The notes below the pieces were generated by a model that did no database searches, was not told the DNA's origin, and saw only the letters and a program-made list of their open reading frames with translations. Positions 343 to 47,036 of a DNA stretch of 64,000 bases are shown here, piece by piece (position 1 is the first letter of the stretch; each line of letters begins with the position of its first letter). Source of the stretch: Cladosporium halotolerans (taxonomy: Eukaryota). The DNA lies in assembly GCF_011745625.1 (NCBI RefSeq), contig NW_027191477.1:248001-312000 (forward strand), read 5' to 3'. Made by a program: the position numbers and the translations under genes.

Positions 343-1767
343 GGTGTGCCTCCGTCAACCGCAGCAGCGCGCCGCCCTTTCCCACCAACGTTGTTGGTTC
401 CTCCCCTGCCACAGACTGTTGCATGAATGGCGGCCCCAATTTTCCTGCATCACGCTTGACACCCGAACTGTCACATCGCCGCTGGGCACAAATCTTGCGG
501 CGTGCAGTTGGGCCTACGCGGCAGCCTGCCATTCAGAAGAGCACCGCAACAGCCTCAACTCTACATGCCCTCTTGACCTGCGATCCGCACTTTGCCGCCT
601 CCTCACCGGCCGCGCAAGCGACTTCCTTTCCATTGCTGCTGTCTTGCCATGAAGATGCCGGTGGAAAGGATATCACCACCTTCGGGGCCGTCGTACAAGA
701 GCAACACATGCCAGCGGCGAGACGGACGCTGGAACCTTTCGCCGCGGCGGCGGCGGCACTTTCGCGTCGGCCGTGGATACTGTGAGGACGACAAGGGCCC
801 TTGGGGCTGCGCGACTGTTCGAGAAGTACTGGTGGCAGTGATGCGCACGGCAAGCATGCTCTTGGTTGCACGGCGTCTCTAATCACATCGCTGAAACATA
901 ATAATAGCCAAACGAAACTCACCCATCAGTAGGATTGCGACACACGCTCAGCCAGACCGAGAAGGCGCGGGCGCCTCAGAGAAATCCGTGGTGGTAGTGC
1001 TGGCTTTGCCACATCCTCACCGTCGCCACCTCCCTTGCCAAAACCCCGCAGACCATCCTTCCCAGAGCCTGGCGCCTGAGTGACAGCTCGGACTTGGGAG
1101 GAGGTGTTGTGCTCGCAGCGGTGACAGGCCCCAAGGAAAGCGACACGGACGGATAGGTGAGGGAGAGGTCGGACGCGAGCAAGCTCCATCTCACTATTAG
1201 CAGAGTCTCATCAAGCAGGACGGGCCTACTGAGGGCATTCTGCCATTGTACGAAGCGTAGGAGTCCGCGGACTCTTGTAACTTGCAGCGTCGGTGGTTTC
1301 TGAACTTTGCAGGCAAACGACCAACCATGAAACCCTATACCCTAACCCTTATGCGCGTATCTAAAGGAGCCGAATACGAACTTCTAAATTCGATATCCGC
1401 TGCCCCGGCTCCCCGGCCACGCCTTGCATGGGTTTGTTCAGCATGAAAACCCGGCTATATTAAAGTCAGCATATACCGCATCGTCAAGCCCCGACGAGTC
1501 CGCTGGAAAACGCTTCCGCGGCTCGGACTGCTACGACCGCTGTTGCTGTGATTGCCGCGAGGGCGGCGATCATTGCTGTTGCGGCTGTCGTTGGCGGCTG
1601 TCGATGGCGGCTGTCGCGCGGAGTGGCGCGGAGCAAGTGCCAACTTGCTTCCAAGGTTGTGTTGGCAGCGCCAGCATTGCACGTACGTGCACTCGTGACC
1701 ACGCGCGCAAACACAGCATCGCTTCAACGTATTCATGTCGCGGCAGCGGAGACGGTGATGCAGGTTC

Positions 1768-36674: not shown

Positions 36675-36997
36675 ATGGCCTGGCTGCAATTTTCTGAGGA
36701 GACCAAGGTACGATCCCAGCCTCCGCCTACGGCCGAAGTCGAGCGGACTCCGCGCAGGCGCATACTTCAAGAAACGTCGTACTGATTATGACATCGCAAA
36801 CAGGAGCGCATCGCCCGCGTCATTGGTTTCGCCCAAGTCGGTGTCCACTACGGCTACCTTCCCCTCATCATCTACCTTGGCTACACCCGCAGCAACCCCA
36901 GGCCCAGCCTCATCAGGTACGCCTCCTCCGCCGGAACTTAGATGAGGAATATATCATTGACACCTGCGGCAGACTCTTCTCTCCTCTTGCGCAGTAG
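36675..36997 (+). CDS. TOM7: Mitochondrial import receptor subunit Tom7; exons 36675-36707, 36804-36916, 36973-36997
   Basis: Spliced: [56 protein letters not shown]. Confidence 0.95.
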
Positions 36998-37508
36998 ATG
37001 ACACAACACGGAGGTTGACAGTATGAAGAGCATGGCAGACAGGGGTGCAGAAGTGTACGATATGAGAGCCGGGCTCACAGCCCAGGAGGAGACGGACGGG
37101 TTTCAGGGTTTCACGAACAAGGACTGAACTTCGTCTACATGTATTTGGAATTGCATTGCATGGTGCTTGGGTTGGAAGATCTCTGCGTGTGAGATGCGCT
37201 TGAGCAGGATGTACAGATATCCCGTCGCCGACTAAATCGAAAGGCTTACTTTACTCTCGATCCCTTTTTCTCACCGTCAGAAGCTCGATGAGCGATTTAT
37301 ACTGACACTTTACGTCGGAGACCAGTACACGAAATTTGGAAGTTCATCCGGCCACTCGTTCTCTAATCCAAGCATCCAGCCGAGGGCAGCCCTCTATCAA
37401 ACCAAACGGAACTGCAAGACACCCGCACAAGCCGCGTCAAACAGCAAACCAGCCTCCAGAAAAAACAACAGCCCTCCCAATCGGCATACCCCAAGTCCTC
37501 CCACTCCG

Positions 37509-38043
37509 CTAGAACATATCCTCCTCGCTCGCCATCTCCGCCTTGATGTTCTCCTCATCCTCACCAACACCCTCCTCAACATCACCCTCCTCAACATCCG
37601 CCGCCTTCTTCCCCTTTCCCTTCCTCCCCTTCTTCTTCGGCGTCTCCTCAACCTCCTCGCCACCCTCACCAGCCTGCTTCCCCTTCCCCTTCCTCTTCCT
37701 CCCACCCTTCCCCTTAACCGGCGCAGCCTCCTTCGCAGGAGAAGCAGAAGCACTCGCACTCGTAGCGCTTACCCCATTCGCCTCAGCCTCCTTCAGCTTC
37801 TTGGCCGTGTTCTGCATCATCTTGCGGTAGCTCTGGACAGACTTAGAGCCATACTCGGCGGCGGCTTTGTCCCAATCGACCTGCGCGGGCGGTCAGAGAT
37901 GGGGAGGTGGTGGGGAGAGGAGGGAGGGAGGGGGTTCTCACGTTGGCGTTTGGGTCGGTTGTGTTGAGGTAGGTGCAGATGATGCGCTCTTTCTCGGCTT
38001 CGGTGAGGAGGGCTTTGGCGATGTTGTAGGAGAAGGTGGACAT
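37509..38043 (-). CDS. Cluster gene A: 157-aa small Myb/SANT-like protein with Lys-rich then acidic tail; exons 37942-38043, 37509-37880
   Basis: MSTFSYNIAKALLTEAEKERIICTYLNTTDPNAN|VDWDKAAAEYGSKSVQSYRKMMQNTAKKL..KGKGGRKRK..TPKKKGRK..IKAEMASEEDMF; phase-0 intron 37881-37941 GTGAGA..CTGAC..CAG. Confidence 0.85.
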
Positions 38044-38529
38044 TTTGGGCGGGTGTTTGTGGGTGTGATGGGTTTTGGCTCGAGGTTTGGCTGTTGGTTG
38101 GAGGGTAAGAGTTGAGGTGGAAAGGTTTGTGGTGTATTTGTGTCGAGTGGAAAAGATTGGGAAAGGTGATGCGCAGATGGAGAGCGAGACAGAAAGTTCT
38201 CGAGAGGTAATTGTTCGTTGCTAGGGATCCGGCATGTGAAAGTGACAGGTCTGAAATCTGCGTGCGGATAGGACGTGTGGCGCGCGGCATGTGACACAGA
38301 AGTTCATTCACTGACTACCTGGGCAGCAAAATCAAAGAAGTGAGACTTGAGATATGAAGCATTCATTGTCCGTTGGTGGTGAGGTCAGCTATTTCACAGC
38401 AAGGGTATGCGAACATGCTACCCAATCGAAGAGCTGACTGTAGTGGCTGCCAGAAAAGCTGTCCTGATCAATGCGCTTTGCCCTCGATCATTCGAAATTG
38501 TGAAAGAGAATGGCAATTGGTCATCAAGA

Positions 38530-39174
38530 TCAATCAGTAGTATTCCCCTCGCCGTCGGTGCTCTGCTCGCTCTTGACGGCGAACATCTCCTCCTCAGCAG
38601 CAGCTGTAGTGTGTTAGCAAGGTCAATGAGTTCATCAAAACCTAAATAACTCACAATCAGCAGCGTCAGAATCGGTGGCCTTAGCCTTTTTGGCCTTCTT
38701 GCTGCGGCCCTTCTTCTTCGGCGGAGCAGCGACCTCCTCCTCCTCGTCGGCAGCGGCCTTCGTGCGCTTGGTGCCTTTGGTCTTCTTCGGCGGCGGCGGG
38801 ACGGTGGCATGGTTCTCCTCCTCCTCCACCTCCTCTTCGTCGTCGTCATCGGCCGTGGCCTTCGCGCCCTTCTTGCCCTTGGCCTTCTTCGGGGAGGCAG
38901 AGCCGGCCGGAGTCTTACCACCAGCACTCACGATCTTCTTGAGGGCGGCGCGGGTCATGACCTTCATGCTGTCGACGGACTTGGCGCCGAACTCTTCGGT
39001 CGCCTTCTCCCAATCGACCTAGAACTTGTTAGCGGAAAAGCGTCAAATTGAGCCATTTGCATTGCTCACCGTGCTGTCAAGCTTCTCATCGACGCGGTTG
39101 AGATAGATGCAAACGAGGCGGTCCCTGTCATTGTTGCTAAGGACGTCCTTGGCGACGCGGAAATTGAAGGCCAT
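38530..39174 (-). CDS. Cluster gene B: 180-aa small Myb/SANT-like protein, paralog of A; exons 39070-39174, 38655-39018, 38530-38603
   Basis: MAFNFRVAKDVLSNNDRDRLVCIYLNRVDEKLDST|VDWEKATEEFGAKSVDSMKVMTRAALKKI..SPKK..KKKGRSKK..VKSEQSTDGEGNTTD; first intron at the same position as in A; both introns have CTAAC branch sites. Confidence 0.85.
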
Positions 39175-39679
39175 TGGAAGCGGGCTTTGGGTGGCTGTAG
39201 TGTTTGACGGTGTATGTCTGCAAATGTGTGTTTCCACTAGTACGACTGATGGTGGTCAGTCTGAAACGAAATGACAGTAGTGGCTGGGTCTGCAGTGGTC
39301 GTGTAGAAGGGAGATTAAAGGAGAAGATAGAGAGGGAAAAGTGAAAAGGAAAAGGAAAAGTTCGAGGCGGCGACGGCATTCAGGAGACAGCTGCGGAATA
39401 GCACGTACCAATGAGCGACTTTCTGCAAGGCAGAACTGGCAAACGGGCACATGAGTGAAGCAGAGACATTCACATGTCAGTGAATTGCTCACTTCGTGGC
39501 GGAGACTTCCGTGCTTTCCACCTTGGTTTCTTGAATGATCGTGAATGAGCCCAAGATCTTGCGTCGTCCTTGAACCCAACCTCTTGACACCAACTTCATC
39601 CTCCCCAGCTGTCAACGACGGACGACATCAAGTCTTAACATCTACCATTATTCCACCAACTCCGCAACAAGTCACCAAC
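39175..39679. promoter_or_regulatory. Bidirectional promoter region between cluster genes B and C
   Basis: Divergent ATGs 39174 and 39680; TCACATG box at 39470-39476. Confidence 0.55.
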
Positions 39680-40138
39680 ATGCCACCAAAAGTCACCGTC
39701 ACCCCAGACGAGGACGTCAAGTTCCTCCTCACCATCATCAAGCTGGCCGGCGTCGGCACAGTACGTCTCCCAGCCCTGACGCCAAATCCAAGCACTAATA
39801 TCAGCCCAGCCTGACTGGCAGAAGGTCGCCGATGAACTCGACCTTCCGTCCAAGGGTGCAGCGTAAGTACACTTCCAACCGCAGCGTTTGCCAAGCAAGA
39901 CTAACATCGAGGTCGCAGTTCCAAGCGCTTCTCCCGCCTGCCTAACAAGTATGGCATTGAGAAGTCCGAAGTGAAGGCTGCGAGCACGTCTCCAGGTGCC
40001 CCGGAGACTCCGAAGAAGGCCAAGAGCAAGAAGGCGACTGGCAGCGCGAAGAAGCGCAAGATCGCTGATGCTGAGGATGAGGTTGAGGTTGAGGCCGATG
40101 ACGGTGAGGCCGCGGTCAAGGCGGAGGAGGACGATTGA
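39680..40138 (+). CDS. Cluster gene C: 117-aa fungal Myb-like DNA-binding protein; exons 39680-39760, 39810-39862, 39919-40138
   Basis: MPPKVTVTPDEDVKFLLTIIKLAGVGT|PDWQKVADELDLPSKGAA|SKRFSRLPNKYG..TPKKAKSKK..KKRK..VKAEEDD; FLL..DW.KVA.EL...SKGAA.KRF.RL matches the small fungal Myb-like pattern; introns GTACGT/GTAAGT with CTAAT/CTAAC branch. Confidence 0.88.
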
Positions 40139-42092
40139 GACACCGGTTTGGGTGATCAGCGGCCTTTGCAGGGCTCAGTACGGCTCGTTGATTTGATACA
40201 CCTCGGTCCGGAGTGGGAAGCAGCAGGTAGCGTTCATTACGTGGCTAGTCGAAAGGTGTGAGAGAGCGTCGTCACATACCGTGACTATGGCTGAGTGGCT
40301 ATGATCATGATAGAGGTGGCCTTGTCGAGCTCTTTCGCTCGTACGTCAAGCAAATTCAAAACCAAGTCCTGCTCTCAATCCAGTTCTGCTTGTTGGCTTG
40401 CATGCCGCTAGTATTGTTGAAATGGAAGGCCACGGATCGCAAACATAATTATGAATCTGTGATTTCATGTTAATCGCAATCCTCCCCGGCGCGACATAGG
40501 CGTCAAGGTCGCAAGACGCGAGCACAAATACTCCATCGTAATCTTGACAGCTGGCAGTCCAGGAACCGTTGGAAGACTTGGGAGAGGAAAGACCATGGAC
40601 GATCAAAGACCATGGACGATGGAGAGATGAAGTTGACCGTGTCTAGGCAGCCAAGCTTTCCCCGATCCGTTTGCAAGTCCCACGAACGTCAGCTCTCCCC
40701 CCCTGTATTTGTGAGAGAAAACATCCAACATCCACGCGTTTGTTACGAGACGCGTGCCTTATGAAGTGCACAAAACGGCTTCTAGAACTATCATGATCTT
40801 TTGTCTTCGTCTGAGGGCAAGTGACACAACTGAAGGCACAAAAATGACGGCAGAATCAGCACGACCACCACGGCAAACATGCTCCGCGCTATACACAATG
40901 TCAAATTGCTACGTCCACGTTTGTTTCTTTCACGCTACTTCTGCTCAAGGGTTTCGCCTTCGTTCAACCTGTCATCGAGCAAGCTAGTCCTCAAGCCTCC
41001 GCCTACCCAGTCGCCCGAAGCCCCCTCAAGGTCTTATTGCGGAAACCCGTATGGAATCATGTTCCCCCTCAAGTCACGTACCAGACCGGTTGGCATGCCT
41101 TTATCAACATTTGATCCGTGATTTCGACCTAGGCATTTCACAGTCATCAGTGTTCAAAGTTGAAAAGCGGTCAGATGGGTTGAGCCACGCGTCCAGGTAC
41201 ACATTGATCATTTCGCAGGGGCAGCTGACTAGCCGTCGCTGTGTAACATCAGAAGCACGTGGTTTTGAGGCTTCCGATCTGCTTTCTCCAGTAAACCTCA
41301 TGTACTCCTTCTCTGGAGCCCATCAGGATCGCTCGAAACGCCGTTTTTGCTGTTTGAAGAGTTATGTTTGGCTACATCAATCACACTGAAATCGCTATCG
41401 CCTAGTTCAGTCCCTCAACCAAGCTCGGGGTCGCCATTGTCGCTGGCGCCTTGACGTGCCCGGACCTAGATTACACGAAATCGAGAGCGTTTCGAAGACC
41501 AAATCATCAGCAATGCCGTCCTTTTCAAACATCTGCGTCACCTCAACCTCCCCTCACGTACAGAGGGTGGGGGCCGGGTCTACTCACACCGGTCTCTTCA
41601 CACGTCACTTACAAGCCCCGCAATCCCGTGACAAGACCGTCGTTGAGCTGCATGTGACGCTCACGTGCCTCACATGCAATATTGGCAAACACCAACGTTC
41701 CAAAAGCGGCAACACCGGCGTCGATACTAGTACTTATCCTCAAAGCATCTAGATTTTCACGTGTCGTGCGAGTGAGCTGCAAATCGCCTAAGGTCCTCTT
41801 TGCTCTTCGCGCCAACCTTTCTCGCCATTCCTCCCACTACACCAACATCTACCCCGAACACGACCACCTCAATATCCTCCAGCTTCGCTAAGCCTCACAG
41901 GCACGGCAAGCGCACCCTAGGCGTATAAACTGCCTCTATCTTTGCTCCCATCAGGTATGGCTTCACCGAGATACTCCGTTTGCACCCAACCGCCCGTGTC
42001 GCACGACAAGGGGGAAAGCCCAACCACGTCTACCATGAGGCATTGTGTTCTCTCGAGCTGACCGATCGCCAGACGCTACGCTACACAGCAAA

Positions 42093-44402
42093 ATGGCGCA
42101 AAATCCCCGCGGCAACATGCCCCCTCCCACTTCGGCCAACGATGCTCCTTTTGCTGATAATGGCACCCCTGACGACGACTACGACGACGACGCCGGGGAT
42201 CACGACTATGTCGAAGACGAGACTCAAGCGCCTACTACGAAATCCTCTCGCAAGAGCACTAAGGGCCGTCAGTTGAAGCGCTGGGATCGTAAGTGCTTTT
42301 CCATCCGCGTAGACCAAGCATAATAGCTGACAAAAGCCGCAGCGGACGAGGATCAATTACTTTTGCTGTTTACGGACTACATCTGCACGAATCTCGGTAA
42401 GCCGATCCCGTGGGACGACGTTGCCGAAGCCATGGAGCCGCGCGACCCCTCTAAGGGAAAGCTCCCGATGACCGGCGAGGCTATCAAGCAGCACTTGGCG
42501 AAAATTCGCGACCACCGGATCGCAGAAGGACGGCGTGTGCCTCCAAAGTTGAGTCGCGGCGCCAGACGTTCGGCTGCCGCGCTCCAAGCGATCGCACATC
42601 CTCTCGCTGACGAAGCGAAGAGAATTTATGGCTCCGGCGCTGCGCAGTCACGCGCTAAGGGATCTCAAGCAAAGGCAGAGAATACTGCACAGCCCCGCAA
42701 ATCGACTCTCCTCGCAGAGACTAACGCCAGCCGGCGCAAGGCTCAGCAGCAGAAGGCAAAGGTCGAGCAGAAGAAGGTCGCCACCGAGCAGAAGGCCGCA
42801 GGCACTGGTATTGGGACCAAACGTGGCGCCACCAAGAGGACCCGCAAGCAGCAGTCTGCCGCTGAGTCAACTGGTGAGATTGAAGGTGGCAATAGTCCGA
42901 CAGGAACATGGCAACTCCGCCCAACCGAGCCGAAAAACTATGCGGAAACTCCTACTGATGGTCTTGAGCAAACCGGCATTAATAATGAGGACCCTTCAGA
43001 TGATGAACCCCTGGTGAAGAAGGCGAAGAGGGCTCACGGTTCCACAGTCAAGCCTAAGAGCGGGCTTCTGAACGATACGGTACATCGGTGGAACAACCGC
43101 GATCCGTTCTCCAGTTCTCGAAAGGATTACTCCCAACTCGGCAGTCACAGTCACTTGAAAGTCAGCAAAGGCCTGCCGTCGGCATTCATTGACACCAGTC
43201 TGGGCATCTCCCTCGGCAACAGTCTGGATACCTCTATCGGGCATGCGCAGGCCCCCTACCCCATTAAGCCGCCGAGCGCGGGCTATTCGGTCCAGCAGGG
43301 CTCTGAGTCGTACCAGTACCCTCGTCCACTGCCTATCGCTTTGACTCCAGGCTCCGAGCCGTCTAACTACTTTGGATCGCAGCCGTCGAGCATATCGTAC
43401 AACCCGATCATGCAGAATCTCGGTGGCGCTAATTCAAGCTTCATGAAATCTCCTACCTACGGAACAAGCCCCCAATCATACTCCGACCCCAGCTACAGCA
43501 GCAGCAGTAGCTTCGCGTTGTCGCAGACCAGCCTTCGCAACAACTCGACTTCGACTAGCTTTTCTAGCAGTCACGATGGTGGGGCAATGATGGGTTTCAA
43601 TGCCATACCTTGTAATTCGATTGGGAATCATATCGGCTCAGACCTGGGCTCTAACGTTGTTCCGCAAGCCAACAGCGGCCAAGGCGGTCGCTCTATTAAC
43701 TTGACCCCTAACATTGGGGGCTTTACCGGCGCATCCAGCAACTTGATTCCGAACACTGTTCCGCCGGTCAACAACGATCAAGGCGGTCTATCCATTAACT
43801 CGGCCCCGTACGATGGGGGCTTTGCCTGCGCATCCAGTAACTTGGGCCCAAGCGACGGGGATTTTGCCGGTCTTCCCAACTTTCTCCCCACGGCCAATGG
43901 CTATGCCATTCCATACAACCCCACTATAGTCAACGACGGTGGCTACAACGACCTACCTAGCAACGACAACTCTGCCAACCTTGGTGGTCTGCCCCTGCCG
44001 CTGTCGAACTCCGGCATCGCGCCCGTTCCGGCTTACAGCAATGGCATCCAGGATCAGGCTCAGCCTGCCACCTCGCCTGCTTTCTCGTCCGATGAGCCAG
44101 TCTTTGGCAAACTCGACACCTCCGTTTCCCAGGCCTACGACAATGGCATCGACACCGGCACCCAGGATCAGGCTCAGCCTGCCACCTTGCCTGCTTTTTC
44201 GTCCGATGAGCCAGTCTTTGGCAATTTCAACACCGCGGTGTCCCAGGCTTACACCGGCCCCGACAGCGTTCCGAGGAGCTTCAATGCCCCCGTCGACCCG
44301 CCGGAGGACGACTTTCACCAGTTCTTCAATGCTGCGCTCCTGGAGAGTGGAAACGACGTGTCTTTCACCCTTCCTGAGGAAGAGCATGTGGAAGACATCT
44401 AA
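42093..44402 (+). CDS. Cluster gene D: ~750-aa protein with N-terminal Myb/SANT-like domain and long low-complexity C-terminus; exons 42093-42288, 42343-44402
   Basis: KRWD|PDEDQLLLLFTDYICTNLGKPIPWDDVAEAM..TGEAIKQHLAKIR; intron GTAAGT..GCTGAC..CAG; TATAAA at 41924; basic segment, then S/N/G/P-rich and acidic region. Confidence 0.82.
44031..44253 (+). repeat. In-frame internal duplication (114-bp period) in gene D
   Basis: QDQAQPATSPAFSSDEPVFGKLDTSVSQAY vs QDQAQPATLPAFSSDEPVFGNFNTAVSQAY; caggatcaggctcagcctgccacc at 44049 and 44163. Confidence 0.9.
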
Positions 44403-45508: not shown

Positions 45509-47036
45509 ATGCTGGACATCAACGACTTCATCAAGGAGCGCGGCGGCAACCCGGAGAAGATCAAGGAGTCGCAGCGCCGGCGCCATGCCAGCGAGGAGAT
45601 CGTCGACGAGATCATCGCCATGTTCGAGGACCACCGCAAGACGCAGTACACGGCCGCGACCGAGATGGGCGCCAAGATCAACAAGGTGCAGAAGGAGATG
45701 GGCCTGAACAAGAAGAACAAGGGCGACCCGGCGGAGTTCGAGAAGCTGCGCGCGGAGAAGGACGCGCTGGCGAAGGAGAAGCAGGAGCTCGAGGAGCTGG
45801 CGGCGGGCAAGTATGTGCTGCTGCTGAAGAAGGTCAAGTCGGTCGGCAACTACGTGCACGACTCGGTGGCGGTCAGCGACAACGAGGACAACAACACTCT
45901 GGAGCGCACGTGGGCGCCTGAGGGCGTGACGGTGGAGAAGAAGGACTGCCTGTCCCACCACGAGGTGCTGGCGAGATTGGACGGCTACGACCCGGAGCGC
46001 GGCGTGAAGATTGTCGGACACAGAGGATACTGCTTGACCGGCTACGGTCTCTTCCTCAACCTTGCGCTGATCAACTACGGTCTCGAATTCCTCTTCAACA
46101 AGGGCTACAAGCCCAACCAGCCGCCTTTCTTCATGCTCCGCGAAGCCATGGCCAAGACCGCGCAGCTCGAGCAGTTCGACGAGGAGCTCTACAAGGTGAC
46201 GGAGAAGGAGAACGACCCCGCGACAGACAAGTACCTGATCGCGACCTCCGAGCAGCCCATCTCCGCCATGCACGAGGCCGAGTGGCTGAACGACAAGGAC
46301 CTGCCGATCAAGTACGCTGGCTACTCTACCAACTTCCGCAAGGAGGCCGGCTCGCACGGCAAGGACGCTTGGGGCATCTTCCGCGTGCACCAGTTCGAGA
46401 AGATCGAGCAGTTCATCTTCTGCAAGCCCGAGGACTCGTGGAGCCACTTCGACCAGATGATTGACACCTCGGAGGAGTTCTACAAGTCGCTCGGCCTGCC
46501 GCACCGCATCGTCGGCATCGTCTCTGGTGCCCTCAACAACGCCGCCGCCAAGAAGTACGACCTCGAGGCCTGGTTCCCCTTCCAGGGCGAGTACAAGGAG
46601 CTCGTCTCCTGCTCCAACTGCACAGACTACCAGACCCGCGAGCTTGAGATCAGGTAAGAATCAGCCCTTCCCACAATCTAATGGCATCAACTAACAACAC
46701 CCCACCAGATACGGCCAAAAGAAGCAGACCGACGCCTCCTTCCAAAAGACCTACACGCACGCGCTCAACTCCACCCTCTGCGCGACGGAGCGCGCACTCT
46801 GCTGCGTGCTCGAGAACTACCAGACGCCCGACGGCCTCAACGTGCCCGAGGTCCTGCGCAAGTACATCCCCGGCCAGCCCGAGTTCCTGCCCTTCACCAA
46901 AGAGCTGCCCAAGGACTCGACGAGCCTGAAGGCCAAGGGCAAGGCGGAGATGAAGGGCGGCGCGGCACCCAAGGTGCCCGGCGAGGGCGAGGTGGTCGAG
47001 AGGCCGAAGGCGGTGGCGGAGGAGAAAAGGTCTTAG
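45509..47036 (+). CDS. SES1: Cytosolic seryl-tRNA synthetase; exons 45509-46653, 46709-47036
   Basis: MLDINDF, YLIATSEQPI, FRKEAGSHGKDAWGIFRVHQFEKIEQF, KKYDLEAWFP, ELVSCSNCTDYQ, HALNSTLCATER. Confidence 0.96.

Follow-up and report, generated by a model that had tools for sequence, protein, structure and literature searches.

The stretch analysed here is a 64,000-nucleotide (nt) piece of the Cladosporium halotolerans genome (contig NW_027191477.1, positions 248,001 to 312,000 of the forward strand; hereafter the window). Between TOM7 and SES1, the window carries four spliced genes, designated A, B, C and D, which open reading frame (ORF)-based calling breaks into fragments. We built gene models for A-D by script from the window, and the flanking genes were identified by Pfam (Table 1). 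An earlier note, made from the DNA letters, had proposed four intron-hidden genes at this place, three of them encoding small proteins of 117-180 amino acids (aa) and each carrying a short module with an aligned motif core; the models agree in all of these respects, and every motif quoted in that note is found in them. All six introns of A-D are of the GT..AG type, are 49-61 nt long and have a CTRAC-type branch site. In A, B and C a phase-0 intron lies one residue ahead of the D-W pair (after residues 34, 35 and 27, respectively), and because its position and phase are shared, these three genes are likely to have a common ancestor, as the earlier note had argued. The intron of D is at a different place. 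The translation of A is letter-for-letter identical to P0001, an NCBI hypothetical protein of C. halotolerans, and no NCBI-named C. halotolerans entry matched C or D within the length ranges searched.

Table 1. Genes, introns and spacers of the TOM7-SES1 interval, in window coordinates.
Feature	Position	Strand	Details
TOM7, last exon (left flank)	36792..36941	+	Pfam Tom7, E 4.2e-17
Gene A	38043..37942 + 37880..37509 (stop included)	-	157 aa; intron 37881..37941, 61 nt, phase 0 after aa 34
Gene B	39174..39070 + 39018..38655 + 38603..38530	-	180 aa; paralogue of A
Gene B introns	39019..39069 and 38604..38654	-	phase 0, after aa 35; phase 1
B-C spacer	39175..39679		505 bp between divergently transcribed B and C
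Gene C	39680..39760 + 39810..39862 + 39919..40138	+	117 aa
Gene C introns	39761..39809 and 39863..39918	+	phase 0, after aa 27; phase 2
C-D spacer	40139..42092		1.95 kb without a convincing ORF
Gene D	42093..42288 + 42343..44402	+	751 aa; intron 42289..42342, phase 1 after aa 65
SES1 (seryl-tRNA synthetase), large exon (right flank)	45509..46657	+	Pfam Seryl_tRNA_N + tRNA-synt_2b

The gene models can be compared with the contigs of a relative that is 90-99% alike (X4). The RNA nature of X4 is a guess (no run is recorded as RNA); it behaves as RNA because spliced joints are present in its contigs. These joints coincide exactly with the intron of A (61 nt skipped) and with both introns of B (51 and 51 nt skipped), and a loose end at 42343 equals the last 16 bases of D exon 1. 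Therefore, A, B and D are spliced as modelled. A single 2,244-nt X4 contig has both B introns removed and yet is unspliced from 39068 to 40566, across the B-C spacer and all of C. This could reflect an overlap of divergent transcripts, antisense or read-through RNA, or intron retention in C. The mean word depth is 300.7 on the X4 contig with spliced A (37400-38198) versus 15.4 on the contig with spliced B (38368-40566). The message of A may thus be abundant, although contig depth is no basis for ranking genes.

Variation among relatives lends the model of C indirect support. The frame of C exon 3 is preserved in relative P0002 at 82% identity. Among the listed indels, lengths that are not multiples of 3 occur only in C intron 2 or between genes (the 1-nt deletion in runs X2 and X3 falls inside C intron 2, at 39893), and both listed 3-base deletions sit in exons, at 37565 in A and at 42181 in D; a further 22 indels and 393 substitutions lie beyond those listed. 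The four listed substitutions in A exon 2 (37839, 37845, 37848 and 37851) are all at third codon positions, as counted from the model.

The spacer between B and C may possibly serve as a shared promoter of these two genes. A hidden gene in the spacer between C and D was considered and ruled out, on the lack of a long ORF and on frame-breaking indels in relatives. This spacer contains two adjacent 17-nt copies, 76% alike, at 40579-40612; 17 nt are missing at 40588 in runs X1-X3, and therefore the copy number differs between strains. Further upstream elements of D are TATAAA at 41925-41930, GTATGG at 41955 and a CAG that ends at 42072, and an X4 loose end at 42070 has letters resembling 41933-41947. 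The loose end, together with the GTATGG and CAG, suggests an intron of approximately 118 nt in the 5' untranslated region of D.

The proteins encoded by A, B and C have a common build: an N-terminal module of approximately 65 residues leads into a tail that starts with a Ser/Thr-Pro stretch. A basic patch of the KKRK type, resembling a nuclear import signal, comes next in this tail, and acidic runs and another basic patch complete it. In A the N-terminal part is a helix-turn-helix (HTH) module (aa 1-70) and the tail is rich in Lys, Gly and Glu. In C the module is divergent and split over exons of 27, 18 and 72 aa, and it is followed by a TP-KKAK-KKRK-acidic tail. D is composed of an acidic N-terminus, a three-helix module (aa 59-142), a basic region, a long tail rich in Ser, Gly, Asn and Pro, and an acidic C-terminus. 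Residues 600-720 of D (window 43900-44300) contain two copies of a unit of approximately 30 aa, QDQAQPAT.PAFSSDEPVFG...SQAY, which is absent from the aligned relatives and looks like a recent internal duplication.

A and B are clearly homologous by sequence, with 38% identity over 65 aa (pairwise expectation value, E, 6e-18) and 53 nt at 75% identity at the DNA level. We searched for relatives of their module with phmmer, using A aa 1-72 against 1.84 billion representatives of 50%-identity clusters at a cut-off of E 1e-3, and obtained 91 proteins, 13 of them at E <= 1e-10. Five long repeat proteins (P0029, P0077, P0079, P0088 and P0092; E 9e-9 to 7e-4) are CBM_14, PKD or SpaA-like by Pfam and were counted as false; multi-stretch false positives of this kind are a warning for short phmmer queries. 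The remaining approximately 86 clusters comprise proteins of 44-341 aa with the same module and tail, so the small proteins are not peculiar to this locus. An alignment of 49 of the 91 proteins (A1), from which double-match rows, fragments, N-terminally extended ORFs and long proteins were left out, gives the consensus xYxYxxAKxVLxxxDKxRxxCxYLNxxxxxxVDWxKAAxxFGSASxxSFKxxxxxxLKK, followed by TP, GxKRK, acidic runs and PxKKxRGxxxK. The tails of 61 of the 85 small members carry a KRK-type patch; RGRP, KGRP, RGRK or RGRG is found in 16 of the 85 and GRP in 11.

Scores against the hidden Markov model (HMM) of this family are 108 bits for A (itself a row of the profile alignment), 91.9 bits for B and only 2.7 bits for C. 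On these scores A and B are members of the family, and C is probably a divergent member, on the basis of its profile comparison against shuffled sequences (described below) and of its tail layout. A is 54% identical to P0006, and B is 59% identical to P0064 and 56% to P0031, compared with 38% between A and B. In a family tree of 50 rows and 73 columns, which has many unresolved forks, A and B are placed in different subgroups separated by a branch with a Shimodaira-Hasegawa-like approximate likelihood ratio test (SH-aLRT) value of 94. Since A and B are each closer to other proteins than to one another and fall into separate subgroups, the duplication that separates them is old. The intron is old as well, because several family ORFs in the database (P0004, P0007, P0009 and P0051) read through an insert exactly at the intron site. 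P0005 and P0058 each contain a tandem pair of HTH modules that no tail separates; therefore, the module duplicates within genes as well as between them. A word-indexed protein search with A aa 35-84, the first 50 residues encoded by exon 2, matched only A itself, and the same search with C exon 3 matched only two ORF fragments of relatives. The literature listed for the C. halotolerans genome contains nothing on genes A-D.

BLAST yields no match between A/B and C/D, and comparisons at the level of profiles say more about the relationship of C and D to A and B. C aligns with the A/B-family profile at an hhalign score of 19.2 over 52 columns in one register, a score reached by none of 70 shuffles (9.3 +/- 1.9, maximum 15.7), and B aligns with the D-family profile at 20.8 over 48 columns, again reached by none of 70 shuffles. 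The A/B profile matches the D profile in the same register over 29 columns (P 0.0055). C and D share 41% identity over 39 aa (pairwise E 6e-4), and the match of C to the D profile is weak, since it covers 15 columns only and its score is reached by one of 70 shuffles. When 15 loci with D relatives fetched from metagenome contigs were searched with relaxed tblastn, the A and B modules matched D-type modules best, in register, at E 0.002-0.005. Additionally, the tails of B and C are 70% alike over 64 nt of DNA, a stretch of low complexity. We take A, B and C to be homologous, and D is a probable distant relative of these three. The shared module proposed in the earlier note is thus firm for A and B and holds for C against A/B and for B against D, while several other tests that involve D are weak.

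In order to predict the fold of the module we used AlphaFold2 (AF2) on A1. Among A, B and C, a model of the four-helix module was made for A only. It has a predicted local distance difference test score (pLDDT) of 87-98 over aa 1-70, with helices at 6-12, 15-26, 37-44 and 49-68 and a disordered tail. We compared this model with 48,161 chains using VIA-align, and nearly all of the top rows are HTH DNA-binding domains. The highest scores are those of DesR, DosR, sigma-28, WhiG and ECF sigma region 4 (Z 6.1-6.8), followed by the SANT domain of DMAP1 (4iej, Z 5.7), a chain of the NuA4 TRA module (Z 5.5), the Tip60 complex (Z 5.1) and the Myb domains of Cdc5/CDC5L (6jui, 5mqf_L and 2din; Z 4.9-5.3). 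The Atlas structure search with A returned HTH_10 and Sigma70_r4 at template modelling (TM) scores of 0.63-0.75, and Foldseek against the PDB gave only weak HTH rows at E 0.4 or more (top rows 0.4-1.1). Searching the PDB by sequence with the profiles of A and D returned nothing relevant. The D module was modelled confidently, at a pLDDT of 84.5, and has helices at 2-16, 23-30 and 44-60 and two more; the Atlas offers only weak Myb leads for it, with scores of at most 0.84. When the A and D modules were submitted together to complex prediction, the score was 0.00 in both runs, which is evidence neither way.

The known domains that resemble the A module fall into several groups. SANT and Myb domains share with it the helix, turn and recognition helix over 47-62 aligned residues (Z 5.1-5.7), and a conserved Trp that opens the second-to-last helix. 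However, A has an extra short N-terminal helix, giving four helices, and a single Trp. In canonical Myb repeats, three aromatic (Trp) residues recur at regular spacing in the hydrophobic core. By reading of the sequence, the A/B module lacks such a triad: a single Trp is conserved (W37 in A), and the other core positions are occupied by Leu, Ile, Cys or Phe. In D, W63 and W87 are 24 residues apart. SANT and Myb domains also score no better against A than bacterial HTH domains do. The effector domains of LuxR/FixJ proteins and region 4 of sigma-70 (4ldz, 1rp3, 3c3w and 1ku7) superpose on A with a root-mean-square deviation of 1.8-2.5 A over 50-62 residues. They are, however, bacterial or archaeal, are 9-24% identical to A and have no sequence relation to it, and their resemblance to A probably reflects no more than the widespread HTH arrangement. 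It is safest to say that the A module is predicted to adopt an HTH fold, which may be of the Myb/SANT type, although this type is not singled out. The proteins also resemble HMGA-type AT-hook proteins and other small basic/acidic chromatin proteins in their small size and in having acidic runs on either side of basic patches. A folded HTH domain is lacking in HMGA proteins. The AT-hook core, R-G-R-P with basic residues around it, occurs in some family members only, such as P0009 and P0051, and is absent from A, B and C; A has PKKKGRKGKGKK and B PPKKKGRSKKAKK, and nothing of the kind is present in C.

The closest Pfam family is PF22980 (Myb_DNA-bind_8), a 50-position model described as a Myb-like DNA-binding domain, composed largely of ascomycete proteins and with a cut-off of 27 bits. 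Six of the 49 A1 members touch PF22980 at E <= 0.1 with scores of 13.9-16.5 bits, all under the cut-off, and the two-module protein P0058 reaches 22.8 bits. These sub-threshold matches place protein residues 18-62 on profile positions 5-49, which is the same stretch as the module. Nearest to A in the ESM-Atlas is a "Myb-like" ascomycete cluster (score 0.89, 185 shared features), 17% of whose members carry PF22980; we treat it as a lead only. The single exons of B and C have no PF22980 match; Pfam matches to DTHCT and PBP1_TM, the only ones obtained with single exons and with A, were rejected as low-complexity noise. PF22980 and the A/B family are alike in having a short helical module in small fungal proteins, and they differ in that no A1 member reaches 27 bits. 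On these scores, the A/B family lies just under the PF22980 threshold, as what appears to be a further divergent branch of fungal Myb-like/HTH proteins. The Myb-like direction taken in the earlier note is thus sound in view of the sub-threshold PF22980 matches and the Atlas cluster. A specifically Myb/SANT fold is not supported, given the generic HTH character of A, whose best structural matches are LuxR and sigma domains, and the lack of a match at Z >= 5 for D. We found no mention of Myb_DNA-bind_8, PF22980 or IPR054505 in the literature searched, and the literature on "Myb-like DNA-binding domain-containing protein" concerns, by listing, plants and protists only. PF22980 offers no known function, because none of the literature searched names that family.

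In order to determine whether the cluster is conserved, we examined the relatives of D and their neighborhoods. The relatives of D number 28 at E <= 0.01 and come from Cladosporium fusiforme, Cladosporium sp. NU13, Hortaea werneckii and other assemblies; no Pfam domain is recorded for any of them. The module, a "VPPKLDRxARR" stretch, a "TGKRGRR" basic motif and the acidic/hydrophobic C-terminus are conserved among them. The 15 metagenome loci (L-numbers) were obtained by scanning contigs with the D alignment. The downstream order of D, SES1 and the next genes is kept in L002 and L005, and in L004 and L006 as far as the contigs reach, while SES1 is on the other strand in L003 and L010. Upstream of D, no fetched locus has sequence that matches the window, and the synteny with Cladosporium-like relatives stops there. 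Six Cladosporium-like loci (L002, L003, L004, L005, L007 and L009; 3-10 kb read) have an Sld5 (GINS)-like gene approximately 1.5 kb upstream of D (at 3539-4436 in L002). No A/B/C-like module was found in the 3-10 kb upstream of D in these loci by family HMM, regular expression or relaxed tblastn. The six may represent one lineage, since one arrangement is shared. The Sld5-like gene is absent from the 64-kb window, which therefore has a rearrangement breakpoint just upstream of D. L002 also contains a Rieske-type oxygenase and a dienelactone-hydrolase-like gene, both named by ORF reading only.

Among the loci with at least 2 kb read upstream of the D relative, a small family-like gene is present in one of nine (L010) and in none of the other eight, which include L011, read for 2.1 kb upstream, and L013, read for 5.9 kb, whose D relative is doubtful. 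The D relative of the Hortaea-like locus L010 is approximately 53% identical to D in the module and resembles the D protein of Hortaea werneckii. Its small gene lies 1.1 kb upstream of D on the other strand (1541..1330 + 1269..1089, with a 60-nt GT-AG intron) and encodes 130 aa. The match of the encoded module is weak (E 0.006 among 6,424 six-frame pieces), and the tail is of the family type, with SPRKRK, an acidic part, KKQKGGK and ...DDDWLV; by BLAST, the gene matches family members at E 2e-4. The 5' end of the same contig encodes a C-like tail with 45% identity over 29 aa (pairwise E 1.6e-4). Beyond C. halotolerans, linkage of a small family gene to D was thus seen a single time, and a different Cladosporium group lacks it. 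Linkage is not general: the D-SES1 pair is kept and a small gene accompanies D in L010, whereas the six Cladosporium-like loci have no gene like A, B or C within the 3-10 kb read.

On balance we lean, with modest assurance, towards the explanation that A-D are paralogues that descend from old local duplications of one HTH gene and that they do not constitute a demonstrated co-functional module. C and D would then have arisen by duplication. All four proteins are most likely nuclear, and their HTH module, assisted by the basic tail, may contact DNA or chromatin. A, B and C could be abundant proteins with an architectural or accessory role, while D would be a regulator with a long disordered, possibly activating tail; its layout of an acidic N-terminus, the module, a basic region and such a tail is present in many transcription regulators. 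A number of observations weigh against this explanation. A has no PF22980 match at E up to 10, and the main exon of D (685 aa) has none at E up to 1. The fold matches of A are modest (Z < 7), and Z < 8 can represent a common arrangement in small helical domains; the D module has no VIA match at Z >= 5 (best 4.3) and only Foldseek rows at E 2 or more. C and D with the A/B profile, like A, B and C with the D profile, give HMM scores of only -0.5 to 7 bits, and the hhalign scores of A on the D profile and of D on the A/B profile are weak, each being reached by three of 70 shuffles. Compared with an AT-hook, A and B have K-K-G-R-K/S only, without the G-R-P core, and tails rich in Lys and Glu occur also in nucleolar proteins and chaperones. 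The introns of C were not seen spliced in the X4 contigs, which cannot show absence, and the literature searched contains no experiment on any member of the A/B family.

Part of this list would fit a situation in which only A and B are related and C and D resemble the A/B module by chance, so that there is no four-gene cluster. The missing BLAST match, HMM scores of 3-7 bits, hhalign probabilities of 3-17% for the likeness of C and D, and the lack of a fold match for D all point this way. We nevertheless regard chance resemblance as improbable, because the comparisons of C with the A/B profile and of B with the D profile beat all 70 shuffles over 48-52 columns in one register, the C intron is at the same place and phase as those of A and B, the tail of C is laid out as in A and B and resembles the B tail at the DNA level, and C and D align with one another. 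If the module is accepted as shared, it could still be a SANT-like domain that binds proteins (histone tails or chromatin-remodelling partners) and not a DNA-reading HTH, with the small proteins acting as adaptors or in the manner of histone chaperones and with the acidic runs binding histones. SANT domains bind histone tails. The DMAP1 SANT domain, Tip60 and the NuA4 TRA chain among the structural neighbors of A, and the long acidic runs beside basic ones in the tails, are in line with such a role; bacterial and archaeal HTH domains score higher, however, both in Z and by the Atlas TM scores, and the differences in Z are within noise. We consider a SANT-like role rather unlikely, if worth keeping in mind.

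The earlier note had gone further and proposed that A-D are a co-regulated unit encoding a heteromeric DNA-packaging or developmental chromatin complex, whose linkage is held by selection. The divergent transcription of B and C from one short spacer agrees with this proposal, as does L010, where the small family-like gene near D and the C-like tail indicate that linkage between a small gene and D may be old. Against it, the six Cladosporium-like loci keep D-SES1 with the Sld5-like gene and without an A/B/C-like module, L011 and the doubtful L013 likewise have no small family gene, and adjacent paralogues are the usual trace of tandem duplication, for which a functional tie is unnecessary. The proposal of a selected complex is thus hardly probable. 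A related idea, that the linkage of small HTH proteins and D beside SES1 is ancestral to Cladosporium/Hortaea-like fungi and marks a functional partnership, is a long shot in our estimate; in that case the small paralogues might be interchangeable chromatin-bound partners or antagonists of D, and the arrangement, if true, would be an undescribed kind of fungal regulator-plus-accessory set.

At present, with duplication as our preferred explanation, the locus is an ordinary paralogue cluster of an uncharacterised family, and not a new type of system. The analysis provides checked gene models for four genes that ORF-based calling fragments, and it indicates that small ascomycete proteins whose HTH module is modelled with confidence form a family of considerable size that escapes the PF22980 threshold. 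Should the small proteins turn out to be plentiful in chromatin, fungi would have in them a counterpart to HMG-like architectural proteins.

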